64,000 nt of DNA from an uncultured archaeon (GTDB lineage Archaea > Thermoproteota > EX4484-205 > JAAOZP01). Made by a program: the position numbers and the translations under genes. Where the stretch lies: assembly GCA_938045545.1 (NCBI GenBank), contig CALIBN010000029.1, positions 8,077-72,076 of the forward strand, given 5' to 3'. How positions within the stretch are numbered: position 1 is the first letter of the stretch; each line of letters starts with the position of its first letter. The notes below the pieces were generated by a model that was not told the DNA's origin, did no database searches, and saw only the letters and a list, made by a program, of their open reading frames with translations. Shown here one piece after another: positions 10,655 through 58,986 of the stretch.

Positions 10655-10674
10655 AGCCACTCCGCAGCTGCATA

Positions 10675-13529: not shown

Positions 13530-14063
13530 TTGGCTAAGGTGAGGCTGGCAACAGTCTGGCTGAGCGGCTGCTCAGGGTGCCACATGTCCTTCCTGGATCA
13601 GGATGAGAAGGTTCTTGAGCTGGCTGAGAAGATTGAGCTTGTCTACAGTCCAATCGCTGACGTTAAGGATTTCCCTGAGAACGTCGACGTTACGCTTGTA
13701 GAAGGCGCTGTTGGAAACGAGGAGCAACTCGAGCTTTTAAAACGAATTAGGAGGAATACTAGGATTCTCGTAGCGCTTGGTGACTGTGCTGTAAACGGAA
13801 ACGTGACAGCCCTGAGGAACAGCCTGAGGAACAGTGATGAAGAGGTTTTGAAAAGAGCCTATGTCGAAAACGCGAGCATTAATCAGGCTGCTCCGAAACA
13901 GGTGCCCAGGCTCCTGAAGAGGGTTCTGGCTTTAAACGAGGTTGTTAATGTTGACGCCTATGTTCCAGGCTGCCCACCATCTGCGGAGTTGATAAACCAG
14001 GTTTTGAACGATCTTCTGGAGGGCAGGACTCCGGTTTTAGAAGGCAGGTTTAAGTACGGTTAG
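13530..14063 (+). CDS. hoxY: Bidirectional hydrogenase small subunit HoxY
   Basis: WLSGCSGCHMSFLD, VEGAV, GDCA, PGCPP; short subunit lacking the distal clusters. Confidence 0.88.
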   Translation: MAKVRLATVWLSGCSGCHMSFLDQDEKVLELAEKIELVYSPIADVKDFPENVDVTLVEGAVGNEEQLELLKRIRRNTRILVALGDCAVNGNVTALRNSLRNSDEEVLKRAYVENASINQAAPKQVPRLLKRVLALNEVVNVDAYVPGCPPSAELINQVLNDLLEGRTPVLEGRFKYG

Positions 14064-14072
14064 GAGGATTGG

Positions 14073-19451: not shown

Positions 19452-19523
19452 CTGTGCATCAGAAAAGTTTTTATCCTCTTCTTTTTTCTCCTTTGGAAAA
19501 ATGAGCAGGGTGACCCATGGTCG

Positions 19524-21973: not shown

Positions 21974-21977
21974 AAGA

Positions 21978-43385: not shown

Positions 43386-44261
43386 TTAATGGCTTAATTC
43401 TTCATCGAGCTTTTCAATCATCTTCAGTATTTCAGTGTCAAGAGGCTTATGCTTTTTCCTTCGATATCTCCCAGCTACGTAAGGACCTGTTGAAGCAAAG
43501 GCCTTCTCGGCAAAATCGTCCCCCTCGCCCTCTGAGAAACGCCTCCACGAGTCCGGAAAATGAACGTAGGATTTCGGGTCTGTCCAGCTTATTTCGAATT
43601 CATCCAGTTTTTCAGGCGGGAAACATACGGCTACACGGTCTAGAGTTCTATGTAAGGATAAGGGGGAAGTGAAAACCCTCTGAATATCTATTCTGCTTTC
43701 AACGATAAGCCCATTCAGAGTCTCAAGCCTGTTGGTGATGAAGCTAGTTGCTGAGTACGCTATGTCGATCGGCTCTATTGTTCTTCTAATTTCGGTGCTG
43801 AAGCAGAAGGGATTGATTTGGACGTGAGCACCCCTGCCACTCCATTTGACAAATACAGATTTAGCAACTCCAAACTTGTCTAGCAGGCTTACTATTTCCT
43901 GAGCCTTCCTGATTACTTTCTTCCAGTCTCCATCTCTAGAGTCTATATCCCACACGGGAGAAGAGTAGAGGATGTTACTTCTGTCTAAAAGATCCTCTCT
44001 GACCCTAAGCCTAGAGTAAGTGTGAACCGTAGCGTAAAATGCTCTCGGCCTATACTTCTTATAACGATTGATCAATTCGATAACTTCCGATTCCGAACTT
44101 ATAGTTAGCGGTTTATTTTTATCATACCTGATCATTAAACGTGTACCATTCTCTCCGATTTCCTCGCAGTGAATGGCAACCCACTTGTTCTTACAATAAT
44201 CAGCTATTTCCCTCTTGACCTCCGGCTTTCCATAATGCTCTAATGGAAGCCAAGGATTCAT
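43386..44261 (-). CDS. Archaeo-eukaryotic primase (AEP) superfamily protein, not canonical PriS
   Basis: WDID (motif I), KWSGRGAH (motif II), ID..RVFTSPLSLH (motif III); overlaps the stop of the KaiC-like gene. Confidence 0.65.
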   Translation of the reverse strand: MNPWLPLEHYGKPEVKREIADYCKNKWVAIHCEEIGENGTRLMIRYDKNKPLTISSESEVIELINRYKKYRPRAFYATVHTYSRLRVREDLLDRSNILYSSPVWDIDSRDGDWKKVIRKAQEIVSLLDKFGVAKSVFVKWSGRGAHVQINPFCFSTEIRRTIEPIDIAYSATSFITNRLETLNGLIVESRIDIQRVFTSPLSLHRTLDRVAVCFPPEKLDEFEISWTDPKSYVHFPDSWRRFSEGEGDDFAEKAFASTGPYVAGRYRRKKHKPLDTEILKMIEKLDEELSH

Positions 44262-45052
44262 AATTCCCTCTCCATCTCCTTTTTAGCGTCGATTATTTTC
44301 TTCATTACTTCAAACGGTAGCTTATAGTCCTCAACTCTCCTCTCAACCCTGCCCAGAACCACCAGGCCTAAGCCGGGCTTAACGTCAATCTCATGAAGAT
44401 ACCTGCTGTGATCAGTCTGCCTCATCTTCTCGATTACGATGAACCTTTTCAACTCTCCACCTCTTAAAAGCCTCCTAAACCTTATTATTCCGTCAGCTAT
44501 GTGTTCAACACCGAAGCCAAAGCTTTCAGCAGTGGTTATAGCATACTGGCTTACGGCAAGTATCGTGAAGTTCCATTTAGAGAGAACCTTCTTAACATAA
44601 TAGCTGTACCTTCTAGCCATTGCAGGCTTGTCCAGCCAGAATGCTGAGAGACTGTCAATGACGATCCTAGCCCGACCGTATCCAAGCTCCTTCTTAGCCT
44701 CTATTATCTTGGATACGAGCGCCTCCATGTCTAGGCTCTGCAGGCTCCACTTGTCCGTCCTGCCCATTAAAGCGTCGATTATTATCAGTCTACCCTCTTC
44801 AATCCTCTTCTGGAAATCCATTTTAAACTGTGAGGCCTGTCTAACTATAGACTCCCTGCTCTCCTCAGTCGTGACGTAAATACACTTATCTCCCTCTTCA
44901 ACACCCTTGTTGATGAAATGTATCGAGAGTATTGTTTTTCCACATCCCGGTTCCCCGGTGACGGCGACGAAGAAGCCCTCCGGTATCCCGCCTTGAAGCA
45001 GAGAGTCCAGCCCCCCAACCCCGGTGCTGAGCCTCTTCACCTCCAGCGTCAT
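44258..45052 (-). CDS. Single-domain KaiC/RecA-superfamily ATPase
   Basis: RLSTGV.GLD.LL.GGIP, GEPGCGKT, TEES, IVIDSLS, EHIADGII, IEKMR. Confidence 0.9.
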   Translation of the reverse strand: MTLEVKRLSTGVGGLDSLLQGGIPEGFFVAVTGEPGCGKTILSIHFINKGVEEGDKCIYVTTEESRESIVRQASQFKMDFQKRIEEGRLIIIDALMGRTDKWSLQSLDMEALVSKIIEAKKELGYGRARIVIDSLSAFWLDKPAMARRYSYYVKKVLSKWNFTILAVSQYAITTAESFGFGVEHIADGIIRFRRLLRGGELKRFIVIEKMRQTDHSRYLHEIDVKPGLGLVVLGRVERRVEDYKLPFEVMKKIIDAKKEMEREL

Positions 45053-45123
45053 TATGTATTGTCTTGCGGAGGAGGCATATGAACTTATCACCCTGCTGTC
45101 GACTACTTGCTTTTAAATTATGG

Positions 45124-47841
45124 TTAACCGGTTTCAGATCGAGCTATCTCGTACCAGATGGTCTGGAAATCAGGCCCGATCGAAAAAACTTTATACTGCC
45201 CCTCGTGAGAAACCTGGACCTGCTTAACCCTGTTACCTATACTGTCTAAAACCCATACTTCCATCTTCCTGTCTGTTCTAATCCTTAGCGTTGCCCTAAC
45301 CCCCTCCACCAGTGTTGGAGCTGAACCCCAGTTTACGCCACAAGTTACGGGCTCCATGAGTGGTTTCAAGTCAGCCAAATCGTTCAGTCTCCACGTTAAC
45401 AATGCTACGTTTCCCTCATACGTGCGGAGCCTCATCCCAGTATTCGTAACGTAGCCGGCAGCTATGAGCAGAAGCCTGTTCCAAGACTCAAAGCTTTCTC
45501 CCTCCAGCACTGTGACAGTTATAATGCTCCAGCCTTCTAGAAGCGTTTCCCCCGAGTCTATGACTAGCGCCCCGAAGTCGAGGCTTCTACCACCGGAGAA
45601 CCCTATGGCCGCAATGCTTCTCGAAGTGTTAACCGTTATGATTCCCCTCCCAGCATAAGAAGTGTCCCAAGCGACTTCCCCCGTGTCGGAGCGGTGAACA
45701 GGCCCAGAAACATTCAAATCGACCCCGGGTAATTTTTCACCGTCGAGCTTGATGGCTGTTCTATGTGTTAGAGAGGCCAACGGGTTTAAGCCCATGTGGC
45801 CAGCATCCGGCAGCGCCCAAGCGTAGACTCTACCGCTCGCTATCAGGTTTACCTCATCCTGCCTGTCCAATCTCATGCAAACAAGCCGGTCGGCCGGCTT
45901 AACGTCTCCTCTCAAGAATATCATGTGCGCAGCTATCAGGGTCGCCATTTTAACAGGGTGCTGGTCAATGTCGAAAAACCCCCTTATCCTCCTGGAGTCC
46001 CAGTTGCCCCGGCTCCCATAGTCGAACAGAAATATTCCATCCCAGTCTTGCAGTGCAGCGTACGCGGCTAGCGTTACGACTGTTTCAGAATCATACATGT
46101 TCGGAGCAGGATGATTGTATTCGGTAACGAAGTGAGGCTTGTTCCCAACCCTTTTAACAGCTAAGCCTACTATGGTGCTTCTCTCCGGATTGTTAACCAT
46201 CGGCTCGTTAACCACGTACCAATTGCTAGGGTCCCAAGGGGTCCTTGGGAAAGAGGGGTGGTTCCAGTAGGCATGCGTGTCTACGACGTCGAGCTTAGAC
46301 ATTATGTTCGGCGTGCTGCACCCGACTATGGTGCCTATCACGAGGGCTCTCACGCCTAGCTCATCTCTAATGAATCTCCTCATCTCCGTGAAAAACCCTT
46401 CCTCCATGCTGTACAGGAATTCGACCCAGTCTCTTCTGGCTACGCTCGTCCTCAAGCCGTATTCGGCGAGCGCCAGTATCCTAACGGTTGCTTTTTCAAC
46501 GCTCTCATCCCCCATCGCGCCGTATCCGCTGAAAAGCCTCATGGAGAAGCAGGAGAACATGTAGGCTGCTATGTTCCTCCCAAGCCCCGAGACATCTAGC
46601 CTAGCATTGTCCTCTGATTCCGACGCAACCAGGGCAACCTCGTACTCCCTCCACTCTGTAGTCAGCGGTACTCCAACCCTTTGCGAAACCAGTCTCCAGG
46701 GCTCGTGCGCCTGAACAAGGCCTATGCTTACACTGGCCGTTTTATCAGCCCTAGCCTTAAACCTTACAAGATAGTTTTCACCCTCCCTTATTCTTAAACC
46801 CGGCTGGTTGAACTGCACATGCCAGCTTTCAGACCCGAGCCTCGTAACCCTGATTTCCAGGTTCCTTCCCCCACCCTCTTCAACCACTCTCGCCGATGCT
46901 TGCGCACCGTTGTGAACCTCAACCACCCAGCCCTCCAAACCTTGTTCGAAGCAACCGTTCCTAAGAACTTCAGCCTGAGCCCAGGGGCTTGTCTCGCCGC
47001 CCCATGCTTTTCTAAACTCCTCGTCAGACACATACTTAGAACCCAAATAGGCGTTCCATTTCTCCCGAAGCCTGTTTCTAAAGACTTGTGGAAGCCTGTC
47101 AACCACGCCGCCGAGCCAAGAATGAATAAGCCCCTGCTCGTTCACTATTTCAACGAAGGCGACCGCAGGGTCCTCAGCGTAAGTCATTCCAGTATAGGGG
47201 TTCAAATGGGTTAAGAGCTGCCTAGCATACTCTTTCTCAAGCTCTTTAACCTCATCTGTGAAAAACCCGAGTACCTGCTGGTCCTTCCAGTCCACCGTCT
47301 CAACTTCTCTAGGTAGACCATCCGCGTAAGTAAACCTTCTTGATACGAGCAGGTTTAGGTCAACGTATATACCGTTCTCCTTAAGCTTTGAAATAAAGTA
47401 GTCGAGCCTGTCGAGCGCATCCTTGTTAAGGCGGCGCGTACCCCCCGTGGTCTTGTCGAAAATGTTGAAAGCCTCCCAGCTCGCATCCATGTGGTGGAAA
47501 CGCGCCACGTTGACCCCGAATTTAGCTAGCCTGCTAGCTATCTTCTCAGCCTCATCCTTCTCTGGGAAGCATGCTCCTCCGCAAATGTTGACCCCTAGAA
47601 ACTTTACTCTTTCCCCGTTAACATAAAGATGACCGTCCTCTCCAACATACACGTGTCCAAGACTGCCCGCCGGCTTGTGGAGCCTACTGCTCATGCTTAT
47701 CGCAGTCTGCTCACTGTCGTCCCAGGGGAGATAGAAGGGGAACACTCGTTTCTCAAGCGTTACGGGTTTAAACAGGTTTTGGAGTAAGGCTAGGGACATT
47801 ATCGAGCCTACTGCCATCAGGATTAAAACTGCTTTCTTCAT
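45124..47841 (-). CDS. Secreted/anchored clan GH-A glycoside hydrolase (GH148-like) with inserted CBM4/9
   Basis: N-terminal TM; ARFHHMD, NPYTG..YAEDPAVAFVEIVNE (acid/base); CBM4-like NGCFE..WHVQFNQ..Y.VRFKARA; HAYW.HP; VTEYNHP (nucleophile). Confidence 0.75.
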   Translation of the reverse strand: MKKAVLILMAVGSIMSLALLQNLFKPVTLEKRVFPFYLPWDDSEQTAISMSSRLHKPAGSLGHVYVGEDGHLYVNGERVKFLGVNICGGACFPEKDEAEKIASRLAKFGVNVARFHHMDASWEAFNIFDKTTGGTRRLNKDALDRLDYFISKLKENGIYVDLNLLVSRRFTYADGLPREVETVDWKDQQVLGFFTDEVKELEKEYARQLLTHLNPYTGMTYAEDPAVAFVEIVNEQGLIHSWLGGVVDRLPQVFRNRLREKWNAYLGSKYVSDEEFRKAWGGETSPWAQAEVLRNGCFEQGLEGWVVEVHNGAQASARVVEEGGGRNLEIRVTRLGSESWHVQFNQPGLRIREGENYLVRFKARADKTASVSIGLVQAHEPWRLVSQRVGVPLTTEWREYEVALVASESEDNARLDVSGLGRNIAAYMFSCFSMRLFSGYGAMGDESVEKATVRILALAEYGLRTSVARRDWVEFLYSMEEGFFTEMRRFIRDELGVRALVIGTIVGCSTPNIMSKLDVVDTHAYWNHPSFPRTPWDPSNWYVVNEPMVNNPERSTIVGLAVKRVGNKPHFVTEYNHPAPNMYDSETVVTLAAYAALQDWDGIFLFDYGSRGNWDSRRIRGFFDIDQHPVKMATLIAAHMIFLRGDVKPADRLVCMRLDRQDEVNLIASGRVYAWALPDAGHMGLNPLASLTHRTAIKLDGEKLPGVDLNVSGPVHRSDTGEVAWDTSYAGRGIITVNTSRSIAAIGFSGGRSLDFGALVIDSGETLLEGWSIITVTVLEGESFESWNRLLLIAAGYVTNTGMRLRTYEGNVALLTWRLNDLADLKPLMEPVTCGVNWGSAPTLVEGVRATLRIRTDRKMEVWVLDSIGNRVKQVQVSHEGQYKVFSIGPDFQTIWYEIARSETG

Positions 47842-47965
47842 CCTTTTAGACGGACTTATAAAGGATAATAAATCTTCTTAAGGCTGGAGCATGCCAAATG
47901 TCTAGGTCAAAGGGTTTCAAAAATAGGTGTGGGGAAAGATTTAGCCGACTTTTAAGATTCTGTTT

Positions 47966-49879
47966 TCACCAGGGCCATATCCATGAGGCTCTTGAAACCA
48001 GGGTGATGGTGGTTCCTACCGCTACGACAATGCCTATGCCTGCTGCAAACCCTGCTAGGACTATGCCTCTAATGGAGAACCATTTTTCAGGTCCAAGTAT
48101 ACGCGTCATCAAGTACTTGCTTACCAAGGACATTATGAACACCATCATGGTGTACGGTTGAATGCTGTACATTCCACCAACTAGTCCAACAGGGTTAAAT
48201 GGTATCCCCAGCTTGTTCAAAGGCAGTGAGACGAGGCTGATCCCCACGGCTATGCCAACGCCGAGAAGTATCTGATCCGCTTTTATAAGTATCTGGCGAG
48301 TTGCGAACAATGAGTCGCTTATAGCATAGTTTGGCCATATTCCGTACACGTATGGGAATAAGTAGGAGGGTATTGGGGCTATTCTCCAGAAGAAATCAGT
48401 AAATATCAGGCCGAATGTTGTTACTAGTATGAAGGATATTATGACTGCCTTAAAATAGTCCATGGGTCTTGTCCCCGTCGCATAAGCCACCTTAGTGGAG
48501 TTTGCGAAGTATGGTGTGGAGAAGCCCGCTATGGCGGGTGTGAAAATCCATCCAGCATAGCCGTTGTAGGGGCTGAAGTATATGGCTGCCTTCCACATGT
48601 TGTATATGAAGTCCGGTGAAAATGTTAATCCGAGTTCACCGTAAATCCTGGCGCCGACGGATGCTAAAACGAAGCTGAACCCTACTGAGACCAGTATTGG
48701 GAGCCAGAAGGGAACATCTGGAAGGAGAATCTCGTAGAGAAACGCGCTAAGAATCGTGGAACTGAAGAACGTGACAAGCAGTATCTTGGGCGAAGGATAT
48801 CCAGGCCCACCCTTCACCCTGCTTAGTTTCGGAAGTGTTTTAAACGCTGCCACGATTTTCCTGCTGGTCGATGCTAAAAGGAAGACGGCTAGGCCGAAGG
48901 ATAAACCCATGAAAAAGGAAAGCCAGAGTCTTAAGCCTGCTCTCTGAAGTATCAGGAATATTCCCATTCCTGGGGAATATTCTTCAACCCACTGGGGGGA
49001 GAAGCTCTTGAAAGTTGTGAGGGTAAGAGTGTTTCCAAAGATCCATGTGATTACTGATCCAACTAGCATAGCGAAGGTTAATGAGGGAGGTAGGATCATA
49101 CCGTAGAGGAAGCTCAACGGGTCTGTAGCTATGCCTATGACTGCCCCAGGTAGGAAGAACTGCGTGTAGGGCGTTAAGTCAACCCAAGGATACGGTATTA
49201 AACGTGCCTGGGGGCCGATAAGCATGGGTGTCAGGTAAAGGATTAAACCGTATATGGCTCCCATTGTCAAAGACAAGATGAAGTAAAGCAGGTCCTGAGG
49301 CCTCCTGTCATGCAGAGTGTTCACCATGGCTGTGTCGATCTGTGCAAATGGGAACGGCAGAGGCTCCTCCACCACGTAAAGATAGGAGAAAAGTATGCCT
49401 ATGGATAGTTCTGCTGCCAGGCCTAGGATTGAGAAAGCAAGGTTTACGCCTAGGGCGAAAAACCAGTCTGGATGCAGCAGGGTTCTCAACTGGTGGACGG
49501 GTGACGTGGCTGGTGGGGACATCCATGTGGGAACGTATTCCCTAAGCGGAATGTTGAAGAGCGTGAACTCTAGGCTTAAAGGGTTCGTAACATAATAGGA
49601 CCTGAATACGAGCCAGTAGTACATCGGCATGGCTCCACCTATTCCCCCTACAATAGAATAAATGATGAAAAGCTCCTGTCTCGAAAGCCTCCTGCCGTAA
49701 ATCTGTGTTAAGGCCGTGAAAAGTATTGCTGTCACGTAAGTGGCGGCAGTACTTACACCAGACCCTACTGCAAACCATAGATATATTGAGGATGGCAGGA
49801 AGATTAATGCGGCCATTATCATTGCTAAGATGCTTCTCCAAGTCAATCCCGGTGAAAATTCCTGCGAGGATTGCGTCAG
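47966..49879 (-). CDS. OPT/YSL-superfamily-like multi-pass membrane transporter
   Basis: Many TM segments; GLTWRS, LSRQELFIIY, EEPLPFP, APIPS..FPY motifs. Start is possibly CTG 49879 (SD 7 nt upstream) rather than TTG 49846. Confidence 0.7.
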   Translation of the reverse strand: MTQSSQEFSPGLTWRSILAMIMAALIFLPSSIYLWFAVGSGVSTAATYVTAILFTALTQIYGRRLSRQELFIIYSIVGGIGGAMPMYYWLVFRSYYVTNPLSLEFTLFNIPLREYVPTWMSPPATSPVHQLRTLLHPDWFFALGVNLAFSILGLAAELSIGILFSYLYVVEEPLPFPFAQIDTAMVNTLHDRRPQDLLYFILSLTMGAIYGLILYLTPMLIGPQARLIPYPWVDLTPYTQFFLPGAVIGIATDPLSFLYGMILPPSLTFAMLVGSVITWIFGNTLTLTTFKSFSPQWVEEYSPGMGIFLILQRAGLRLWLSFFMGLSFGLAVFLLASTSRKIVAAFKTLPKLSRVKGGPGYPSPKILLVTFFSSTILSAFLYEILLPDVPFWLPILVSVGFSFVLASVGARIYGELGLTFSPDFIYNMWKAAIYFSPYNGYAGWIFTPAIAGFSTPYFANSTKVAYATGTRPMDYFKAVIISFILVTTFGLIFTDFFWRIAPIPSYLFPYVYGIWPNYAISDSLFATRQILIKADQILLGVGIAVGISLVSLPLNKLGIPFNPVGLVGGMYSIQPYTMMVFIMSLVSKYLMTRILGPEKWFSIRGIVLAGFAAGIGIVVAVGTTITLVSRASWIWPW

Positions 49880-49957
49880 GGGCCCTTCACCTCGTTTTTA
49901 CCTGGGGGTTCTTATATAAAAATTTTTAAATCCCAGCTAAAAAACTTATAAGCCGAC

Positions 49958-52900
49958 ATGCTCCCCATTCTCCTAAAAGGCATGACTGTCAGAATTAGAA
50001 TCATGTTAATATCGCTTCTCCTCCTATCTGTTTTCCTCACGCCAGTCGCACAGGTTCTCGCAACCCCTGGGCAGCTTTATGCGTCATTTTCAAAACCTGA
50101 TCTTAAACCTGGTTTAAGCACTTCTGTTTCAGCCCAAGCGGAAAAACTTTTCCCGTTAGACACGGCTTGGATGAACCGGTTTATAACAGAAGTGTCTTCC
50201 TACGGTTCTAGGATGACCGGTTACCCGGGCTACTACAAGACGCTCGAGCATCTTTACAACTATCTGAACGAGGTGGGAATAGCAAGCCAGAAACACAAGT
50301 ATAAGGTGCTGGTGCCCTACGACGAGGAGACTTATGTCGAGGCCCTAGAGCCGTTTAAAGCCAGGTTTAAAGCTTACGCGCTCTATCCTAACGGTATCAA
50401 CCCTTGTCCAACTTCCTCCAACGGGATTGTTGGAAGCCTGATTTATGCTGGGGGAGGCGACTTGCAGGAGTTAGATGGGAAGAACGTCGAGGGAAGCATA
50501 GTGGCCATGGAGTTTAATTCTCGGGATAACTGGCTTAAGGCGGTTAACCTCGGAGCCGAGGCAATAATATTCATAGAGCCGGAGCAAACGACCTATCAGG
50601 AGTGCTACGCCAAGTTCTTAGACACTCCCATGGGTCTTACAAGGGTTTACGTTAAGAAGCAGGATTGGAATGTTTTGAAAGCCGCCACCCGTGTAAAAAT
50701 CGTTTCAAGAATAGCGTGGAGGGAGGTTGAGGCTGAGAACATAGTTGGATTTATAAATGGGACAGCCATACCTAACGAGGTCGTCGTACTTTCCGCGCAT
50801 TTCGACTCATGGTCTGTTGTCCCAGGCTTGTCGTCAAGTAAGACTGAGCTGTTACCCTTGGCTCTTCTGCTTCAGTATGCCCTTCACCTCAAGGCCAACC
50901 CGCCTAGATATTCAGTATGGATAGTGCTTTACTCGGGACACTGGCAGGCACTTAGCGGCTCGAGAGAGTTTGTCGAGGACTACTTTTTCAGGGAGGATGT
51001 GAGCAGTGGCAAGATAACGATCCTCGGAAACATAAACTTCGACCTTATGGCGAGTGACTCCGACGGTCTGCAGCTTCTCCACGCCAGCCAGTACTCAACC
51101 TACGGCGCTACCCCTATACATGGCGGTGGCTTCCCGCTTAGGCTCTCCTGGTTTAGCACAACGATAGGGAGCATGATTGACACGCCTGAAGTCAGGCTTT
51201 TCGCAAGGAGGATACCGAACATTAACGTTTCAGCCCCCTCCAGCGCATTCATCTCCTCGCTCGTAAGCATTTTCTTCCAGTATAATACTTTTTCAGGCAC
51301 CGAGCCCATCCCGTTTATGCTGGACTCCGAGCCTGCTTCGATCGCAGGCATACCGGCGTTCTCCATAACGACCAGGCGTTCAAACAGGATCTACGTGGGC
51401 TCCCCCATAGATGATTCGAGCTATGCTAATGTAGACGTTATAGACCCATACCTCCAACTTGCCCTCTACATTGTTGACGGCCTTCTCCGAATGGAGTGGA
51501 ATATCGATAGGGCTTCGATCAAGCCGACAAGGTTTCTCCTTTCAAATACGAGAGGATACCCGGGCTACGCTGCTCTTCAAGGCAGGGTTGTTGTCTACAA
51601 CTATAGTAAAGGATGGTACGACGGGGTTCCTGATGCTCTTGTTGAAGTAAGGCTGGTTACTTCAACCTATAAGCTTAACAGGATAGTGATGAAAAGCGGC
51701 GAGGATGGGTCTTTCACAGTCCACGGCGTTCCTATTGCCGGTGCCGCCGGGGGAGGAGGCACCGTAGTAATATTCTCAAGATGGATCGCCAGGGGGTGGG
51801 TGCTTAACGATGAGGGCATCATCACGATGGCTACTGACCTGGGGCAGTTCGGAATGATGAACTTCCCGCTTGAAATAACCGTCTTACACGCTTATGAGAA
51901 TGTTACCGTGGTGATTGCTAAAGCCGTGTCTGTGGAAGTGCTTGATTTCGAGATCCCAACCATCATAATGACGCCGAGCATAATAGATCCTAGGGCTGGC
52001 GCGTTCGAAATGTGGAGGAGCCCGCCTCAACCTGTTGCCGTGTTCTCATTCGAGATGCTTACTAAGAGTCCGCCGATAAGCTACGGCTACTATTCTAACG
52101 GCTGGGAGCCTGTTTCAATAGTATGGGTTCAGCCGGGGATAAGGTTCGTCGTCGTAAGCCCAACTGGGATACTTTTAACTAATTCTTCTCTTGAAAACAC
52201 GGAGGGAAGCGGGTTCTACGTGGAATATGGGAAGAGGGAGAGAGTGTGTTTCTCAACTTTCAGGACTGCTAAAGACCTCTACTATGTTTCATACGGCCGT
52301 TATCTTGAGCTGGTTAACAGAAACATGGGTAGCCCGAGCGCCGATGAAACCCTGAATAAGGCTCGGAGATACATAGAGGAGGTTGAGAAACTTTTAAACG
52401 AGAGGAAGTATAGCGGCATGTATGCTTACGCTCTTCTAGCCAGAGCCTACGCAATTAGGGCTTACTCCGTGGAAGTCATGCCCCTGATAAACGATTCTGC
52501 GAAGTCTCTTCTCTACATGTTTATCATAGTCATATTCGGATCTTTCTTCTTGGAGAAACTCATCATCCAGGCTCGCGGCTCAAGGCGTATTGTTGCTCTC
52601 GCCGTTCTTGCAGCAATATTCCTAGCATTGTTCAGCATTCTGCATCCAGCATTCGGATTGATGAGCAACATATCTCTAGGCATGATGGGCTCTCTAATCC
52701 TGATCGTTATCATAATAGTGTTCATAATAATACTTTCTATAAGCGAGGAGGTTAGGAAAGGCATTGAGAAGAGGGTTCTAGGTGTCCACAGGGCTGAAGT
52801 AAGCAGGCTTGACACGGCGATGATATCTTTCTCGCTGGGGAGCGAACACATGCGTCGCAGGCCTTTCCGCGCCATACTTGTTTTCCTAACACTGATCACA

Positions 52901-54535
52901 ATGGTTGTAGCCATGACATCCTTCACCTCTCTCATGCCCGGGAGGATAACGGTTCCGGTCACAAGGTATGGTTACGAGTGTAATTCCTACAGGGATGAGA
53001 TCCTGGTAAAACAGGGGAGAGGCGTCCCCCCGAACATTCTTTCAGACAAGGTTCTAGATATTGCGAAAATATTCGCCGGAGACAAATACTATGTTTTCCC
53101 GAGAGTATGGATTTACGGTCCGGTGGATAGGGCCGCGTGGACCACCTCCTTCCGAGTGTGGAGCGCAACAAACACTTCCAGAGTGCCTGCAATAATGGGA
53201 ATGACGGTGGAGGAGTTCAACCGGATTGTGAGGGGCACATGCATCGTGAGGGGTGGGCTGCTTTCCGACGATGCTGACCAGGCAGTAATATCGAGGTCGC
53301 TGGCAACTAACTTGAGCGTAACGATAGGGGACACTATTTACGTTTCAGGCATCAGGTTCACGGTGACCGGAATAATTGATTCAAACGAGGTTGATTTCCT
53401 ACAGGAGGCTGACGGATACAATATTTTCCCGGCGAACCCGAGTTTCTTCCCATCTATAAGCAGGGACATGGCTGTCTCTGCTCAAGCCGGCTCGTCTCCC
53501 CCAAACCTCGGCGTTTCAACAACAATAATAATACCCTACAGGAGGGCGCTGATGATAGGGGGATACATTGCTTCAATAGCCATAGTGCCTAAGGGAAACA
53601 TGTCTTTCAACGAGATATTCAGCCTAGCTAAGGAGCTGGCCTACTCCCTAGACCTTTCAATATATGTTTCCCACCAGGGAAAGCCTTATCTGCTTTCAAC
53701 CTTCACCACTGTGCTTCTGGGAGGGTGGGAAATAATATGGATGATCATCATCCTGGGGGCGTTGAACATATTTACCACGGTGCTGGGAAGCCTCAGGGAG
53801 CGCGTTAGAGAAGTGCACGTGTTCAGCATCGTCGGCTTATCTCCAATGGGTGTAACCGTGTTCTTCATGACCGAGGTCATTGTCTACGCTATAATAAGCG
53901 CCTTAGTAGGCTATATCGCAGGATATTTCATGACGAGGATCTTCATGCTTACCGGAATACTGCCTTCTGAACACGTTTTCAACTTCGCTTCAGCATTCGC
54001 GATCCTGGGGACCCTGGTGACGATGGCTTCAGCCTTAGCGGCGGCTGCATACCCGTCTTACATGGCTTCGAAAGTGGCTACGCCCTCGCTCGAGAGGAGG
54101 TGGAAGTTTAAGACTAAGCCTAAGGGAGACGAGTGGGATATTCCTCTGCTCGTAAGCGTTTCAACAGTCGATGAGGGGAGGGGGCTCTTAGCGTATTTAC
54201 ACGAGTATTTCGCGGGCGCAGGGGCTGTTAAAGAGGGTGTTCACATGGTTAAGGAGCTGCAACCTCCAAACTACGAGAGTCTATCGTTGAGCCTAACAGT
54301 CAGCCTCTCGCCGTTTGAAGTAGGTGTTTCCCAGAGGGTTGATATTGCCGCAAGGCTGAACGAGGAGGTGAAAAGATACGATGTTATACTCCACTTGGAG
54401 AGGCTTACGGGCCCGCAGAGCACATGGGTGACTTCAAACTACAGGTTTGTAAACGAGTTGAGGAAACAACTGATAATGTGGGGATCATTCTCAGCCACTG
54501 AGAAAGCAAGCTACATATCTATGGCAAAAGCTTAG
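49958..54535 (+). CDS. 1525-aa fusion: PA/M28-peptidase-like ectodomain, MacB-type extracytoplasmic domain and FtsX permease
   Basis: Signal peptide; SRMTGYPG, LIYAGGG, ENIVGFI, LSAHFDS, YSGHWQALSGSRE, NFDL; TM block; LGSLRERVREVHVFSIVGLSP FtsX motif. Confidence 0.8.
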   Translation: MLPILLKGMTVRIRIMLISLLLLSVFLTPVAQVLATPGQLYASFSKPDLKPGLSTSVSAQAEKLFPLDTAWMNRFITEVSSYGSRMTGYPGYYKTLEHLYNYLNEVGIASQKHKYKVLVPYDEETYVEALEPFKARFKAYALYPNGINPCPTSSNGIVGSLIYAGGGDLQELDGKNVEGSIVAMEFNSRDNWLKAVNLGAEAIIFIEPEQTTYQECYAKFLDTPMGLTRVYVKKQDWNVLKAATRVKIVSRIAWREVEAENIVGFINGTAIPNEVVVLSAHFDSWSVVPGLSSSKTELLPLALLLQYALHLKANPPRYSVWIVLYSGHWQALSGSREFVEDYFFREDVSSGKITILGNINFDLMASDSDGLQLLHASQYSTYGATPIHGGGFPLRLSWFSTTIGSMIDTPEVRLFARRIPNINVSAPSSAFISSLVSIFFQYNTFSGTEPIPFMLDSEPASIAGIPAFSITTRRSNRIYVGSPIDDSSYANVDVIDPYLQLALYIVDGLLRMEWNIDRASIKPTRFLLSNTRGYPGYAALQGRVVVYNYSKGWYDGVPDALVEVRLVTSTYKLNRIVMKSGEDGSFTVHGVPIAGAAGGGGTVVIFSRWIARGWVLNDEGIITMATDLGQFGMMNFPLEITVLHAYENVTVVIAKAVSVEVLDFEIPTIIMTPSIIDPRAGAFEMWRSPPQPVAVFSFEMLTKSPPISYGYYSNGWEPVSIVWVQPGIRFVVVSPTGILLTNSSLENTEGSGFYVEYGKRERVCFSTFRTAKDLYYVSYGRYLELVNRNMGSPSADETLNKARRYIEEVEKLLNERKYSGMYAYALLARAYAIRAYSVEVMPLINDSAKSLLYMFIIVIFGSFFLEKLIIQARGSRRIVALAVLAAIFLALFSILHPAFGLMSNISLGMMGSLILIVIIIVFIIILSISEEVRKGIEKRVLGVHRAEVSRLDTAMISFSLGSEHMRRRPFRAILVFLTLITMVVAMTSFTSLMPGRITVPVTRYGYECNSYRDEILVKQGRGVPPNILSDKVLDIAKIFAGDKYYVFPRVWIYGPVDRAAWTTSFRVWSATNTSRVPAIMGMTVEEFNRIVRGTCIVRGGLLSDDADQAVISRSLATNLSVTIGDTIYVSGIRFTVTGIIDSNEVDFLQEADGYNIFPANPSFFPSISRDMAVSAQAGSSPPNLGVSTTIIIPYRRALMIGGYIASIAIVPKGNMSFNEIFSLAKELAYSLDLSIYVSHQGKPYLLSTFTTVLLGGWEIIWMIIILGALNIFTTVLGSLRERVREVHVFSIVGLSPMGVTVFFMTEVIVYAIISALVGYIAGYFMTRIFMLTGILPSEHVFNFASAFAILGTLVTMASALAAAAYPSYMASKVATPSLERRWKFKTKPKGDEWDIPLLVSVSTVDEGRGLLAYLHEYFAGAGAVKEGVHMVKELQPPNYESLSLSLTVSLSPFEVGVSQRVDIAARLNEEVKRYDVILHLERLTGPQSTWVTSNYRFVNELRKQLIMWGSFSATEKASYISMAKA

Positions 54536-55208
54536 TGTAAGTATACTCCTCTATTTTCTTAAGCAGGTTGACAACTGTGAGGAACGCTCTCCGGATAACG
54601 CCTCCAGACTGAACACCATACAGCATGTGCATCCTTACGATCCACGATATGGATTGAGGCGCCTCCATATGTTTTTTAACCATGCTGCCAATTATCGGTC
54701 CTCTGTCTGAAGTCATCAGATATGTTTCAAAAAGTTCAACCGGTATAAGGGATGGGAAGATTTCTATCAAGTCTCCTCCCCCCTGTTTAACCAATTCCTC
54801 AACCTCCCTGCTCCTAACGACCTGCATTAGGCCTTCTTCCTCGAGCATGGTTACCCCGGATAGTGATGAGAGTCCACTCCACCTGCTGGCCTTCAGGCTT
54901 CTTCTTAAAACCCCTTTCAACTCCAGTTCCACGGATTCTGAAAGCATTCTTTTCAAAAGCTGACTTTTATCCCGGTTTTTAAGCCTGTCTTCAGGGATTT
55001 CAAGTACGCCGACCATTTCGAACTTCCTGTCTAAGCTGAACTGCATCCTCCTTACTAGGATAATAAGCCTTATTTGCGGGTTTTCAAGCGGCTTGGCAAC
55101 TAGGTTTCCCCTTCCAGTCTCCTCGAAGGAGATTTCGAACTGTTCAAGCGCCTTCTTCACGCTCTGAACCCAGGACATTACCTCTACCAGTTTATTTGAT
55201 GCACTCAT
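54519..55208 (-). CDS. Hypothetical protein
   Basis: 229-aa soluble ORF with ATG start, convergent with the FtsX fusion; no motif recognised. Confidence 0.65.
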   Translation of the reverse strand: MSASNKLVEVMSWVQSVKKALEQFEISFEETGRGNLVAKPLENPQIRLIILVRRMQFSLDRKFEMVGVLEIPEDRLKNRDKSQLLKRMLSESVELELKGVLRRSLKASRWSGLSSLSGVTMLEEEGLMQVVRSREVEELVKQGGGDLIEIFPSLIPVELFETYLMTSDRGPIIGSMVKKHMEAPQSISWIVRMHMLYGVQSGGVIRRAFLTVVNLLKKIEEYTYTKLLP

Positions 55209-55362
55209 AAATCTAACTTAAAGAGAAAATGTTTCGCGTAAACAGGTGGGTTTATGAACCCATTTTAATTGGTTTAACGCGTGTGGAAACTCTAAAGGAC
55301 ACATTTACATCCGTAAAGTTTAAATTTTGCAAATGTATAGCATAAACGAAGGTGAAAACGTT

Positions 55363-57462
55363 ATGGCTACGGAAGTAGAGCTTAAAACAGGTTTAACAGC
55401 AAGATCACTCGCCGTCTCCATCCCCCTCGCAATATTCTTCGCCTACATGTCGGTTGTCGTAGGCCTATATACCGACAAGACATCCACATTCGGTACTTTC
55501 ATCCTACCTATGGTGTATTTCGTCGTAGTTTTCGAACTCCTTGGAAGAGCCAACCCTAAGCTGAGGCTGACACCTCAGGAATTAGTCTTTCTGTTCTCAG
55601 TCATCTCTTTCCTAGGGATGCACTCATACCTGACGATGCATGCTGCAGCCCACAACAATCCTTTAAGCATGCCCGTGTACGGTGCTCTCAGCGACTACGA
55701 GGCTTTCTCGATAGACGCTTTAAGGGATTACTGGAGCAGGGCTGTTCCCTCTGTTGTAATTGCTCCTGAGCCGATACGCTTCGAGATAGCTACGATAATG
55801 ATGAACGGTAAAGCACCAGGCCAAGCTGTTCCATGGGGCTACATAACTAACGCCCTAATATACTGGGGCCTCGTCTACATGTTCTACGCCTTCATAAGCG
55901 TGTTCGTAACATTCGTCTTCGGCAGAGTCTGGGTTGAGGAGGAGAGGCTAATCTTCCCCCTTGCGGTCCCGTCACTCTACCTCTTCAGGGAAGCGGGGGA
56001 TGTCGATCCCGCTACTAATAAGTCTAGGCTTTTCAACTTCAAGGTTCCGACGACAAAGGTTTTCTGGGGCATGTTCATAATAGGCATGATAAGCGGAATA
56101 CAGCCTTTAATAGTCGAGCTCTGGCCGGAGTTCCCAGCGGCAGCATGGTGGGGCGAGCAGAATGTGAACCTTCCTTTCCTCGCTGCGCTCTGGCCAGGTA
56201 TATATGCGTCAGCAATATTCTTCATACCTCAGATAGCCGTAGGGCTGGTCATGCCTAACGATGCTCTGATAACCCTGATACTAGGCTGGATCATCTTCGG
56301 CGTGCTCTACCAGGGCATAGGCGTGAGCATGGGCATAGTAGCGTACCAGGCTGGCATGGAGTACGTGTGGCCCTGGGAAGCATACCCTGGCCAGTGGATG
56401 CCTTTCCCATACAGGATGGTTGCTTCAACCGGCGTGGCCCTTGGAATAGCGATATGGTGCCTCTACACCCAGAGGAAGAGGTTTGCAAGCGTATTCTCAT
56501 CCCTCTGGAAGGGAGGGGAGGAGAGAGGCCTATCAATGAGAACAATCCCACTACTCCTACTAATAGGCGCATTCGGATGGTACGCCTTAATGCTGATCGA
56601 AGGAGCAGACCCATTGATCGCATTACTCGTACCACTCTGGGCCTTGGTCTTCCACGTAACTTACGCGAGAGTATACGCTGAGGTCTTCTGGCACGTCGGA
56701 ACAGGCTGGGGTGCTGGTCCTGCAGCCTGGGACCCGACCTACGTAGTAGGGTCAGCCCTAAGAGGATGGCCCGCACCCATGAGCGTAACCTGGGACACGC
56801 CAATGACTGATCCAGCCTGGTTCACAATAGCTAGGCACATGGCGAACGCTGGCCATTGGAACGTGTCCTTCGGCCCACTGTCAGCAGGGTTCCAGGTGAC
56901 GCTGTACAAGCTTGCCTACGAGCTTAGAATGAGGATGAGGGACTTCCTGATCGCTTTAATCATCGGCATGGTTGTGCTGCTATTCGTGTTCGTTCCGCTG
57001 AACACCTACTTCATATTCAACACGCAGGGCGGTGTCAACCAGCTGGGAGACCGCGTGTTCACTTGGTGGCCTTGGATTGCAGCAGGATACTATCACAGGG
57101 GTAGGTGGGCTGGGCCCGCGGAGCTAACAATAGAATATGCCCTTGGAATATGCTACGGCCTCGGAATACTTCTTGCACTAGTACTCTACATCTTGAAGCT
57201 TAAAGTACCTTTCTTCTGGTTCATAAGCGTTCCAGCCCTATACGTATCCATGACCATACCGACATACATGTGGCTGACCTCGCTGATCGCGTTAATAATA
57301 AAATTCGTCGTGATCAGGACCATAGGGATTAAGAAGTATGAGGAGTATGCTATGCCAATAGTTGCAGGATGGATCCTCGGCTTCGGCGCCATGTGGCTGC
57401 CTGCTGCACTGCTAAACCTTGGAGTAGTATTCCCGAAGATGCAAACCCTGTTCCAACCATAA
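55363..57462 (+). CDS. OPT-related multi-pass membrane protein (DUF6785-like)
   Basis: GLTARS, LTPQELVFLF, WVEEERLIFPLA; many TM segments; AAGGTGA SD before ATG 55363. Confidence 0.72.
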   Translation: MATEVELKTGLTARSLAVSIPLAIFFAYMSVVVGLYTDKTSTFGTFILPMVYFVVVFELLGRANPKLRLTPQELVFLFSVISFLGMHSYLTMHAAAHNNPLSMPVYGALSDYEAFSIDALRDYWSRAVPSVVIAPEPIRFEIATIMMNGKAPGQAVPWGYITNALIYWGLVYMFYAFISVFVTFVFGRVWVEEERLIFPLAVPSLYLFREAGDVDPATNKSRLFNFKVPTTKVFWGMFIIGMISGIQPLIVELWPEFPAAAWWGEQNVNLPFLAALWPGIYASAIFFIPQIAVGLVMPNDALITLILGWIIFGVLYQGIGVSMGIVAYQAGMEYVWPWEAYPGQWMPFPYRMVASTGVALGIAIWCLYTQRKRFASVFSSLWKGGEERGLSMRTIPLLLLIGAFGWYALMLIEGADPLIALLVPLWALVFHVTYARVYAEVFWHVGTGWGAGPAAWDPTYVVGSALRGWPAPMSVTWDTPMTDPAWFTIARHMANAGHWNVSFGPLSAGFQVTLYKLAYELRMRMRDFLIALIIGMVVLLFVFVPLNTYFIFNTQGGVNQLGDRVFTWWPWIAAGYYHRGRWAGPAELTIEYALGICYGLGILLALVLYILKLKVPFFWFISVPALYVSMTIPTYMWLTSLIALIIKFVVIRTIGIKKYEEYAMPIVAGWILGFGAMWLPAALLNLGVVFPKMQTLFQP

Positions 57463-57463
57463 A

Positions 57464-57474
57464 CCTTTTTTTTG
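57464..57474 (+). terminator. Archaeal oligo-T terminator
   Basis: CCTTTTTTTTG immediately after the 57462 stop. Confidence 0.45.
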
Positions 57475-57543
57475 ATAATCATTTCCTCGTCTTGTTTAGT
57501 TTCAAGCTTGACGAAAGTTTTTAAAAAAGTGGCATAAGACCAT

Positions 57544-58986
57544 TTGATGATGTTAAGTTTCAAGATAATGTGCTCGCTTCTCGTAATCACGCTGGTAATC
57601 CTAGCTTTCTTATCCTACAACTTATTCGCTTTAATGCGGTCAACTAGGGAGCTTTACAGTCAGCTCGCTGAATACGGTGAAAGCTTCAGAAACCTGGCAA
57701 GCCTTATATCAAGCCTATCGTATGATGCTTACGGTGGAACCTTGAGTGTTAAAGGCGCGGCTACAGGCTTCTTCCACGTTGAGAAGATTAACGGCACCTG
57801 GTGGATTATAGATCCTGAGGGGAACGGCTTCATATCTAAGGGTGTGAACCATGTTAGCTTCGACGCGGATTATTCTCCGTCTCTAGGATACAGCCCGTAC
57901 AACAAGGCTGTTCTGAAAAAGTATGGTGGCGTCGAGGCTTGGGCTAAAGCCACCGTGGAAAGGCTGCGCAGCTACGGTTTCAACACGATCGGCGCATGGT
58001 CCAGCAGGGAGCTCTACGGGCTTAAAATCCCTTACACTGTAATACTCGACATTGCCGCGTCAGCCGGCTCAGAATGGTTGAGCGGCAGCGTCATAGACTA
58101 TTTTTCAGAGAGTTTTGAGAAAGTTGCCGAAGAGGTTGCTGAGAAGATGTGCGCCCCTAGGAGGGACGACCCGTATCTCCTGGGTTATTTCACGGACAAC
58201 GAGCTGAGGTGGGGGCCGGACTGGAGGTCTTCCAAGCATCTTTTCGACGACTATCTTGCTCTTGAGAAGGATGCTCCGGGTAAAAGGATGCTCGTCCAGT
58301 ATTTAATGGAGAAGTATGGGAGCATAAGCGAGCTTAACGCTAAATGGGGGACGGGCTTCCGCTCCTTCGAGGATATTCTGAGCATCTACGTGCCTCCTGC
58401 CGGGGCCTCCTTGGATTCTGACAGGCTGGGCTTCCTGCAGCTTGTCTCGAAAAGGTATTTCAAGGTTTGCCACGACGCTATAAGAAGGCATGATCCCAAC
58501 CATCTTATCCTGGGGTGTAGGTTTGCCTTCAGGCCGCCTGACGAGGTTTTGAAAGGGTGTGTTGGACACGTTGATGTTGTTTCAGTCAACAACTATGGGT
58601 GGGAGCCCCCGCTGGAGGACTTGAGGGCTATTAACCGTCTCACAGGTCTTCCAGTAATGATTACCGAGTTCTCTTTTAAAGCGAGGGACTCAGGCTTGCC
58701 TAACACTAGGGGTGCTGGAACACCTTTGGCAACTCAGGCGGATAGGGCTGAGCGTTTCGAAAACTATGTCGGCAAAATCTTATCCGAGCCCTACGTGGTT
58801 GGCTACCACTGGTTCCAGTATTCGGATCAGCCTGCGCAGGGAAGGTTCGACGGGGAGAACAGTAACTTCGGTCTCGTCAACATCGAGGATGAGCCCTGGG
58901 TGATTCTAGTCACCAGGGTTACGACGGTTAATCTTAAAGCTGAGCTTATTCACGCGGAGTCGACGGTTGAAAAAGGCTCACAGTAG
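57544..58986 (+). CDS. Membrane-anchored GH50-like (beta-agarase-like) glycoside hydrolase
   Basis: ATGFFHVEKINGTWWIIDPEG, GFNTIGAWS, DPYLLGYFTDNEL, PVMITEFSF, GYHWFQYSDQP..GRFDGENSNFGLV. Confidence 0.8.
   Translation: MMMLSFKIMCSLLVITLVILAFLSYNLFALMRSTRELYSQLAEYGESFRNLASLISSLSYDAYGGTLSVKGAATGFFHVEKINGTWWIIDPEGNGFISKGVNHVSFDADYSPSLGYSPYNKAVLKKYGGVEAWAKATVERLRSYGFNTIGAWSSRELYGLKIPYTVILDIAASAGSEWLSGSVIDYFSESFEKVAEEVAEKMCAPRRDDPYLLGYFTDNELRWGPDWRSSKHLFDDYLALEKDAPGKRMLVQYLMEKYGSISELNAKWGTGFRSFEDILSIYVPPAGASLDSDRLGFLQLVSKRYFKVCHDAIRRHDPNHLILGCRFAFRPPDEVLKGCVGHVDVVSVNNYGWEPPLEDLRAINRLTGLPVMITEFSFKARDSGLPNTRGAGTPLATQADRAERFENYVGKILSEPYVVGYHWFQYSDQPAQGRFDGENSNFGLVNIEDEPWVILVTRVTTVNLKAELIHAESTVEKGSQ

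Follow-up and report, generated by a model that had tools for sequence, protein, structure and literature searches.

Conserved module of a PA/M28-like FtsX membrane protein and two OPT-like carriers in Thermoproteota

The 64,000-nt stretch of contig CALIBN010000029.1 (assembly GCA_938045545.1) analysed here, called the window in its full length, derives from an uncultured archaeon. The studied segment, positions 45124-58986, encodes a giant membrane protein of 1525 amino acids (aa), in which a PA/M28-like ectodomain is fused to an FtsX permease module. Two multi-pass proteins are encoded beside it, an OPT-like protein of 626 aa and a DUF6785 protein of 711 aa. The giant, the OPT-like protein and the DUF6785 protein constitute a conserved module that is widespread in Thermoproteota and also occurs on bacterial-type contigs. 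The module is undescribed and built from known superfamilies. Its function is tentatively read as that of an ATP-assisted capture device feeding the two OPT-like carriers, with an oligosaccharide as a plausible cargo of this copy. Positions refer to the window unless another contig or locus is named.

The three membrane protein genes form a conserved module

By tblastn with the six proteins of the segment, two further triads were detected in the genome (2.03 Mb, 51 contigs, 92% complete), both on contig C7 and with the collinear order DUF6785, giant, OPT-like, and were confirmed by Pfam. The C7 giants share 28% identical amino acids with the window giant (E 1.8e-159 and 4e-140). For a wider comparison, 78 loci were assembled: the window region, the two paralogous loci of the same genome, 15 loci from genome contigs and 60 loci from a match table of the phylum. 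The latter comprise about 20 kb around full-length giants and were chosen non-randomly for different genera, most loci of the same genus being left out. Genes were called as open reading frames (ORFs) of at least 80 aa with a crude caller, and hidden Markov models (HMMs) were built from the three paralogues of each family. Both partners were present within three genes of 59 of the 76 giants of at least 1300 aa. Eight had only the OPT-like partner, two only the DUF6785 partner and seven neither. Several of the misses coincided with contig ends or with a partner located at least four genes away. Gene order and orientation varied widely among the loci, as would be expected of a functional unit rather than of frozen synteny. 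The triad recurs at two other places of this genome and in most of the related loci, which puts the arrangement far beyond chance. The grouping of the three membrane genes in the initial annotation is thus borne out by their co-occurrence.

A metagenome scan with bacterial-type giants confirmed 416 relatives, and 80 loci were retained. The giant has at least 1300 aa in 67 of these loci, and among them an OPT-like gene was present within three genes in 46 and a DUF6785 gene in 18; many of these contigs are short and the HMMs are archaeal. Neighbours of the bacterial-type giants included Lgt, signal peptidase II, flagellin and DUF1559, which identifies many of the metagenome contigs as bacterial.

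The closest named record is a metagenome-assembled genome (MAG) of Candidatus Brockarchaeota (97% identity); others are MAGs of Thermoproteota and Thermofilaceae. A word-indexed protein search found 40 relatives, 36 of archaeal type and four of bacterial type (1650-1719 aa, one named Phycisphaeraceae). The bacterial-type proteins share the M28-like N-terminus, the FtsX part and the C-terminal motifs. Within the phylum, 90 of 401 sampled genomes, or 41 of 161 genera, matched the giant at E ≤ 1e-20. A profile of the C-terminal domain matched 1,539, 1,345 and 399 cluster representatives (clusters at 50% identity) at E ≤ 1e-3, 1e-10 and 1e-30, respectively. Among the best 150 proteins, the domain was always C-terminal and most proteins had 1430-1570 aa; the shorter ones may be fragments. 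A literature search found no paper describing such an FtsX/OPT-like system and none on DUF6785 or DUF6784, in agreement with the initial annotation, to which no characterised transporter with this architecture was known. The main text of the Brockarchaeota paper PMC8065059 does not contain the words 'transporter', 'FtsX', 'GH50' or 'oligopeptide'.

The ORF check placed six ORFs in the segment at exactly the coordinates first annotated, including the two divergent pairs 626/1525 and 229/711 (named by protein length). Together with one more distant gene for a glycoside hydrolase (GH), these are:

45124-47841, minus strand: GH148-like glycoside hydrolase, 905 aa, with a CBM4 carbohydrate-binding module (CBM) inserted in the barrel, N-terminally anchored or secreted; based on CBM_4_9, GH5-like similarity and motifs
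47966-49846, minus strand: OPT-like multi-pass protein of the OPT superfamily, 626 aa, divergent from the giant; based on paralogues and profile comparison
49958-54535, plus strand: giant PA/M28-like and FtsX membrane protein, 1525 aa; based on Pfam M28, MacB_PCD and FtsX and on structure models
54519-55208, minus strand: soluble protein without family, 229 aa, convergent with the giant and overlapping its end by 17 nt; a recurrent accessory in some module subfamilies
55327-57462, plus strand: DUF6785 multi-pass protein, 711 aa, distant paralogue of the OPT-like partner; based on PF20581
57544-58986, plus strand: GH50-like glycoside hydrolase, 480 aa, N-terminally anchored; based on GH50 beta-agarase structures
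61342-63648, plus strand: GH3, 768 aa, without signal sequence, context only (outside the conserved module); based on Pfam GH3 N, GH3 C and Fn3-like

Each of the two OPT-like genes is followed on its own strand by the gene of an anchored glycosidase, as had been noted: the GH148-like gene after the 626-aa gene and the GH50-like gene after the 711-aa gene. The GH3 gene starts 2.36 kb past position 58986.

Anatomy of the giant and of its carrier partners

Three Pfam models match the giant above their cut-offs. Peptidase_M28 (PF04389) scored 31.8 bits against a cut-off of 21.3 at residues 261-373, covering profile positions 1-104 of 193 only. MacB_PCD scored 33.4 bits (cut-off 27) at residues 1056-1180, and FtsX (PF02687) 39.6 bits (cut-off 25.5) at residues 1259-1372. 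The ectodomain was modelled over residues 36-865 with a 54-sequence alignment (predicted local distance difference test, pLDDT, 88.7; pTM 0.89). The model has a PA/M28-like pseudo-peptidase, followed by beta-sandwich domains and a three-helix stalk. Its fold matches PA-bearing M28 aminopeptidases (2ek8, E 6.7e-22; BSAP, TMt 0.61; PaAP), GCPII and the transferrin receptor. The model of the C-module (residues 940-1525, pLDDT 88.7) ends in an alpha/beta cytoplasmic domain. It matches the folds of MacB, LolC/E, HrtB and YbbP (Foldseek: 5gko, E 1.3e-13; LolCDE 9rld, E 2.5e-12; MacB periplasmic domain 3ftj, TMt 0.63). The Pfam and fold matches agree with the PA/M28-FtsX fusion first annotated. From the hydrophobic segments and the two models, we infer the following topology: an N-terminal anchor, the ectodomain outside, three transmembrane helices (TMs), a cytoplasmic linker, FtsX TM1, a Porter/Sabre domain outside, TM2-4 and the C-terminal domain inside.

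In the alignment with the GCPII-like chain 4twe, the catalytic Glu-Glu of M28 peptidases corresponds to W329-Q330 of the giant, and the bridging Asp to G290. The place of the catalytic pair reads HWQ or HYG in all three paralogues, and SGHWQ is the consensus of 54 relatives. Since the catalytic Glu-Glu and the bridging Asp are replaced, the M28-like domain is classified by its residues as a pseudo-peptidase and not as an active M28 peptidase, as the initial annotation had proposed. A fold shared with PA-bearing M28 enzymes, GCPII and the transferrin receptor, together with the missing catalytic residues, suggests a receptor-like ectodomain. The PA and M28 folds are common to the giant, the transferrin receptor and GCPII, and both the catalytic loss and the membrane tether occur as in the transferrin receptor. 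The giant differs by its fusion in one chain to an ABC (ATP-binding cassette)-type permease module, and the identity to these proteins is about 14-15%. Nicastrin is another PA-domain M28 protein that is used as a receptor.

The C-module resembles the type VII ABC or MacB-FtsX proteins (MacAB-TolC, LolCDE, FtsEX, HrtBA, BceAB, YbbAP), with the same four-TM FtsX, a Porter/Sabre ectodomain between TM1 and TM2 and the coupling loop. The FtsX coupling-loop motif is invariant across the three paralogues. In contrast to these proteins, the giant has an N-terminal extension of about 950 residues, made up of the PA/M28-like ectodomain, the stalk and three TMs, and ends in a cytoplasmic domain specific to its family. 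For this conserved C-terminal domain of about 150 aa, represented by a profile of the last 152 residues, no significant relative was found in Pfam or among PDB sequences (best E about 0.01 and 0.66).

The 626-aa protein matches no Pfam family at E ≤ 10 and is thus under the gathering score of OPT (PF03169). Pfam OPT matches 18 of 48 OPT-like relatives at E ≤ 0.01 (best E 3.9e-17). The two paralogues in this genome, each beside one of the other two giants, are 30% and 28% identical to the 626-aa protein; one of them reaches 25.6 bits with Pfam OPT (cut-off 25.8) over positions 2-619 of 623. The closest atlas clusters were automatically named 'Peptide transporter family protein' or OPT. The 711-aa protein matches DUF6785 (PF20581) with 67.5 bits (cut-off 25). 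Its paralogues adjoin the other two giants and one of them also matches DUF6784, a domain seen only in this paralogue and in one other relative. The 626-aa and 711-aa proteins matched each other with a BLASTP E of 3e-4. A comparison of the two family profiles, made from 48 relatives of the OPT-like and 47 of the DUF6785 protein, showed full-length homology (hhalign probability 100, E 6.3e-42, 589 columns). This homology and the OPT matches of the relatives place two divergent OPT-superfamily paralogues in the module, consistent with the two OPT-like multi-pass proteins of the initial annotation. The 626-aa protein is classified by these comparisons as a distant branch of the superfamily and not as a demonstrated OPT member. 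PDB sequence searches with both family profiles gave nothing meaningful.

Measured against OPT/YSL carriers (TC 2.A.67, PF03169), the 626-aa family is similar over a full-length profile, and DUF6785/6784 is homologous to this family. The module deviates from them in that the window copy is under every Pfam threshold and that two divergent paralogues come together, accompanied by an FtsX giant. The same two carriers, as constant genomic partners, set the module apart from type VII ABC systems; the literature search found no paper joining such carriers to this class.

The 229-aa protein has no TM-like segment. Searches of Pfam and NCBIfam gave no match and the atlas no usable one, leaving the protein without a known family, as first annotated. 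Its homologues, detected by phmmer, adjoin the module in window-type loci and in loci L010, L059, L061, L081 and L088. Its profile links to small proteins of L081/L090/L103 (probability 96.3), and from those to L056/L058 (96.6).

Candidate ATPase, flanking glycosidases and other neighbours

The Pfam scan of 45124-58986 found neither an ABC ATPase nor a solute-binding protein. The absence of both, put forward in the initial annotation, is correct for this segment and does not extend to the whole window. A complete Opp/Dpp-type ABC importer is encoded at 16989-23950, with an 820-aa SBP_bac_5 protein, two BPD_transp_1 permeases and two oligo_HPY-tailed ATPases. It is followed by a 547-aa NosD/beta-helix protein (24228-25871, minus strand). 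The genome has 39 ABC_tran matches and ten FtsX genes. Of the latter, three encode the giants and three belong to FtsX-ATPase pairs; the remaining four encode other large FtsX proteins (1007-1670 aa) and have no ATPase gene next to them. One of the four large proteins, with 1071 aa, is encoded in the window at 33416-36631 (minus strand).

Metagenome loci pointed to a candidate partner. Beside the module and next to an ABC ATPase, they encode small proteins (200-360 aa), here called mini-FtsX, whose similarity to the giant is restricted to its TM2-4 part. A mini-FtsX is present in 11 of the 80 metagenome loci, and 13 carry an ATPase that matches an ATPase on contig C11 of the archaeal genome at E 1e-86 to 1e-113. 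The pair on this contig consists of:

C11:21808-22443: mini-FtsX, 211 aa, with almost no extracellular loop; TM2-4 match to the giant
C11:22459-23184: ABC ATPase, 241 aa, orthologous to the module-linked ATPases

The C11 mini-FtsX matches the 11 metagenome mini-FtsX proteins at E 3.5e-42 to 1.2e-24, and the C11 ATPase the 13 module-linked ATPases at E 4.6e-113 to 2.1e-86. In the complete archaeal genome G198, a mini-FtsX and two ATPase paralogues are located about 3 kb from the triad, in convergent orientation. In genome G046, two close ATPase matches are located about 0.2-1.2 kb outside the module locus, and in genome G085 the ATPase is two genes away from the giant. A paralogue of the C11 ATPase, 62% identical, is encoded at C18:13172-13867, and G198 has both ATPase types in tandem after the mini-FtsX. 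The tandem might indicate a heterodimeric ATPase. A further ABC ATPase gene is located just upstream of the third triad (C7:103635-104009; L005:4669-5292), followed by a 12TM_1 membrane protein. It has an in-frame TGA in the assembly that leaves a 207-aa fragment; relatives have a 262-aa ORF at this place.

The giant and the ATPase orthologue are distributed alike among 401 genomes: 62 have both, six the giant only, 16 the ATPase only and 317 neither. The cut-off, E ≤ 1e-100 for both, was set after the bimodal scores had been seen, and genomes related to each other do not count as independent. Shorter FtsX relatives of about 945 aa are encoded in several of the 16 ATPase-only genomes. A complex of the giant's C-module with the mini-FtsX was weakly supported by prediction, with an ipSAE of 0.41 (median of three runs), compared with 0.00 for the best of three controls. 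Among solved complexes, 58 of 80 reach the mark applied to the ipSAE, as do two of 110 mismatched pairs; only seven of the 80 solved complexes and both passing mismatches do so with scores of 0.60 or lower. The runs agreed in at least 76% of the contacts, the partner pLDDT was at least 67 and the alignments were made in this analysis. The pass may express likeness only, since solved LolC/LolE-type pairs are alike.

The mini-FtsX/ATPase pairs beside related modules and the orthologous pair on C11 largely explain the missing ATPase, and the module is probably not ATPase-less. The initial annotation of a machine without ATPase agrees with the gene content of 45124-58986 and conflicts with the C11 pair and its counterparts beside the module in related loci and in G198. 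A MacB-type ATPase family tracks the giants across genomes, as a candidate counterpart of the ATPase of type VII ABC systems. The module differs from these systems in that the candidate ATPase is usually unlinked in archaea, and in that a minimal FtsX, almost devoid of an ectodomain, may be a partner.

The 905-aa glycosidase has a CBM_4_9 domain at residues 291-417 and a GH5-like similarity at 141-238 (Pfam; PDB similarity to CBM4 and to a GH5 mannanase), with the motifs VNEQ at 233 and VTEYN at 572. For EngU, the founder of GH148, the publication PMC5725463 gives 905 aa, a CBM4 at 293-430 splitting a clan GH-A barrel and the catalytic residues E239 (INNEN) and E581 (VTEYN). Because length, CBM4 position and the NE and TEYN motifs match EngU, the GH148-like assignment is well founded; the two proteins are likened by published layout and motifs. 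The call of a GH148-like enzyme with CBM4 in the initial annotation thus stands, with the CBM_4_9 inside the barrel. So does the GH50-like call: the 480-aa protein matched GH50 beta-agarase structures by phmmer (4bq2, E 4.9e-53, residues 116-465; 5z6p, E 4.4e-50), besides a weak Pfam GH42 match. The best NCBIfam models for the 768-aa GH3, beta-xylosidase/arabinosidase (821.7 bits) and BglX (531.6 bits), remained under their cut-offs. Hydrophobic N-termini are strong in both flanking glycosidases (905 and 480 aa) and absent from the GH3, consistent with two anchored enzymes and a cytoplasmic one, as first described. TATA-like boxes are present in the spacers 47842-47965 and 57463-57543, about 15-25 nt before the glycosidase start codons. 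The latter spacer (81 nt) opens with a T8 tract right after the DUF6785 stop codon. A search for operator-like motifs (k-mers of 8-10 nt) shared among the seven intergenic spacers found only A/T-rich 8-mers.

Other neighbours differ between loci. Directly upstream of the GH148-like gene, a KaiC-family ATPase (TIGR03881, 371 bits) and a 291-aa protein without family are encoded (43386-45091, minus strand). The pair is kept in the close-relative loci L006, L007 and L009, and a 39%-identical copy of the 291-aa protein is encoded on contig C6. Three radical SAM genes, one MoaA-like, are located directly upstream of the second triad (L004:3307-7323). The close relatives of this triad have kept them, and modules in L103, L075, L082 and L166 are likewise flanked by radical SAM genes. 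In each of the two paralogous loci, a gene for a protein of about 350 aa comes directly after the OPT-like gene (L005:15670-16728 and L004:16077-17126); the two proteins belong to unrelated families. Neither family has a Pfam match; a PDB profile search gave nothing for the first and a weak glycoside hydrolase match (E 0.11) for the second. The GNELRE and ISETG motifs of the first family recall catalytic motifs of clan GH-A. On many low-GC bacterial-type metagenome contigs, a TPR protein of about 175 aa is encoded immediately upstream of the giant (18 loci). In the same set of metagenome loci (L117-L190), PqqD-like proteins of about 140 aa (eight loci) and, in one lineage, lgt and lspA are encoded nearby; a PqqD-like protein is also encoded near the module in L101. 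Farther away in the window, 6585-15509 comprises two [NiFe]-hydrogenase-like gene sets, with NiFeSe_Hases large subunits at 6585-7871 (minus strand) and 14073-15509 (plus strand) and Oxidored_q6, NuoF-like and Fe-S subunits.

Candidate functions and relation to known systems

The capture device proposed here would work as follows. An ABC ATPase would drive the giant, as it does other MacB-type permeases, with the C11 mini-FtsX/ATPase pair (C11:21808-23184) as the best candidate. This pair may serve all three giants in trans, the mini-FtsX maybe being the second transmembrane partner of the giant. ATP-driven motion of the FtsX stalk would move the receptor-like ectodomain. The ectodomain would bind an extracellular oligomer and pass it to the two OPT-like carriers, and import would be by ion coupling. 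For this copy, an oligosaccharide is the most plausible putative cargo, given two anchored enzymes, GH148-like and GH50-like, and a cytoplasmic GH3 nearby: the former two would cut the polymer and the latter would finish the degradation. This reading leads the alternatives considered here and is held tentatively.

The glycan part was examined by neighbourhood counts. Annotation of 287 cluster representatives covered 457 neighbours within four genes of the core. The background comprised 134 genes in eight randomly placed 20-kb stretches of this one genome, which is rich in carbohydrate-active enzymes (CAZymes). Strict CAZymes were defined by a GH, polysaccharide lyase (PL), CBM or GH-like Pfam match, and one locus was counted per near-identical group (52 loci):

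Distance 1 from the core: 9 of 106 genes
Distance 2: 3 of 79
Distance 3: 2 of 64
Distance 4: 3 of 55
Distance ≤ 2: 12 of 185
Total: 17 of 304
Background: 5 of 134

A looser count, which kept redundant loci and added the labels BNR, DUF6259, DUF5107, sulfatase, beta-helix, Laminin_G_3 and Amidase_2, gave 19 of 155 at distance 1 and was rejected as inflated. The CAZyme families differ by locus and comprise GH148-like, GH50-like, GH57, GH66, GH2, GH31, GHL10, NamZ, GH4, GH15 and PL22. In other lineages, a GH57, a GH66 and one GHL10 enzyme, anchored or secreted, directly flank modules. Genes for sugar metabolism (AP_endonuc_2, GFO_IDH_MocA, MR_MLE and similar) were equally common in the background and beside the module.

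Several observations weigh against the proposed uptake of oligosaccharides by an ATP-assisted device. The CAZyme excess is not significant (Fisher p 0.17 at distance 1, 0.32 at distance ≤ 2 and 0.48 for all), and a strict CAZyme occurs within four genes in only 13 of the 52 non-redundant loci. The CAZyme enrichment that the initial annotation had named as its own test is weak (9 of 106 vs 5 of 134). The closest relatives of the module in other families are L010 (Thermofilaceae, giant 53% identical) and L059/L061 (OPT-like and DUF6785 proteins 63-65% identical). All three have the 229-aa gene and no adjacent glycosidase. The non-significant excess and these relatives without glycosidases weaken the reading as a system like a polysaccharide utilisation locus (PUL), which is weakly supported. 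In many bacterial-type loci, the neighbours are housekeeping genes. The glycosidase genes themselves seem to have their own promoters: the TATA-like box before each of them and the T8 tract suggest separate transcripts and do not imply co-transcription with the OPT-like genes. This interpretation follows general knowledge of archaeal promoters and terminators. The Opp/Dpp-type importer on the same contig is a classical alternative route of oligomer uptake and could serve the glycosidases instead; such importers carry oligosaccharides in some hyperthermophilic archaea. Sixteen genomes have the C11-type ATPase without a full-length giant. To our knowledge, every characterised MacB-type system works outward or extracytoplasmically, and none assists import.

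Uptake of peptides is a serious, though less probable, alternative that would retain the ancestral substrate class of the OPT-like pair; the ectodomain would keep a GCPII-like peptide pocket without cleavage, and the glycosidases would be incidental. The OPT ancestry of both carriers, the atlas name 'Peptide transporter family protein' and the likeness of the ectodomain to aminopeptidases and GCPII are in its favour. So are the limitation of glycosidase adjacency to close relatives of the window locus and the peptidase genes (M19, M20, TldD/PmbA, M28, C39-like) within four genes of the core in nine of 50 locus groups. However, by our own labelling, peptidases were not enriched among the neighbours (12 of 457, compared with about six of 134 in the background), and the loose labels gave 19 CAZyme-type genes and no peptidase at distance 1. 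Residues of the zinc site that help to hold the substrate in M28 enzymes are also replaced. Another serious rival, which we nevertheless regard as unlikely, is a mechanotransducer of the envelope or of surface enzymes, as in FtsEX, LolCDE and MacB. It would extract, release or activate surface proteins or membrane molecules, and the OPT-like proteins would be exporters, flippases or scaffolds. All characterised members of the MacB/FtsX class act outward as far as we know, and the FtsX module has the fold of MacB, LolC/E and HrtB. The module is located beside lgt and lspA in one bacterial lineage, and N-terminally anchored hydrolases flank it here and in some other lineages. On the other hand, its invariable partners are carriers of the OPT superfamily, and the members of this superfamily that have been characterised are importers. 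Neither a hydrolase nor a lipoprotein gene is constant among the neighbours, and glycosyltransferase or export-type neighbours are few.

The version of the initial annotation, a PUL-like machine with an FtsX fusion that needs no ABC ATPase, is very unlikely. It would account for the lack of an ATPase in 45124-58986 and for most of the 78 archaeal loci, which have no orthologous ATPase within about 8 kb. The conserved coupling-loop motif, the orthologous pair elsewhere in the genome and beside other modules, the strong phyletic association (62/6/16/317) and the weak CAZyme enrichment speak against it. That the genes are chance neighbours without any functional unit is hardly credible, given three collinear copies in one genome, both partners at 59 of 76 giants from many genera in varied order and the giant/OPT-like adjacency also on bacterial-type contigs. 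The capture device may also be extended to a new class of uptake machines, in which an engine of giant, mini-FtsX and ATPase would use ATP to move a transferrin-receptor-like pseudo-peptidase lid, which would capture extracellular oligomers and load a heteromeric OPT-like pair, each paralogue being tuned to a different polymer. This extension is rather improbable.

The proposed capture device shares features of layout or concept with known uptake systems. The likeness to the PULs of Bacteroidota with SusC/SusD is one of layout only, as a multi-copy transporter module is flanked in some loci by varied, partly surface-anchored glycosidases. In contrast to PULs, an outer membrane is absent, the association with CAZymes lacks significance and the neighbours in many loci are unrelated. 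SusC and SusD were not among the Pfam matches of the ORFs in 40629-63648. The binding-protein-dependent secondary transporters TRAP and TTT are alike in concept only, with an extracellular binding module that feeds an ion-driven carrier. In the module described here, likened to them by concept, the putative binding part is joined to an engine of ABC type.

An abundant module is thus still unnamed, its signature domain lacks a Pfam model and the literature search found no paper on it. The lineages concerned play a major part in the degradation of detrital polymers in sediments and hot springs, and their oligomer uptake is poorly known. If the capture device is real, the combination of a MacB-type engine with OPT-like carriers would be a new transporter build and a genomic marker of substrate-uptake loci in uncultured archaea. 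The less probable machine with a transferrin-receptor-like lid, if it exists, would be the functional counterpart of the SusC/SusD markers in archaea and planctomycete-like bacteria. Whatever the function, a receptor-like pseudo-peptidase fused to an FtsX permease is a clear structural and genetic target.

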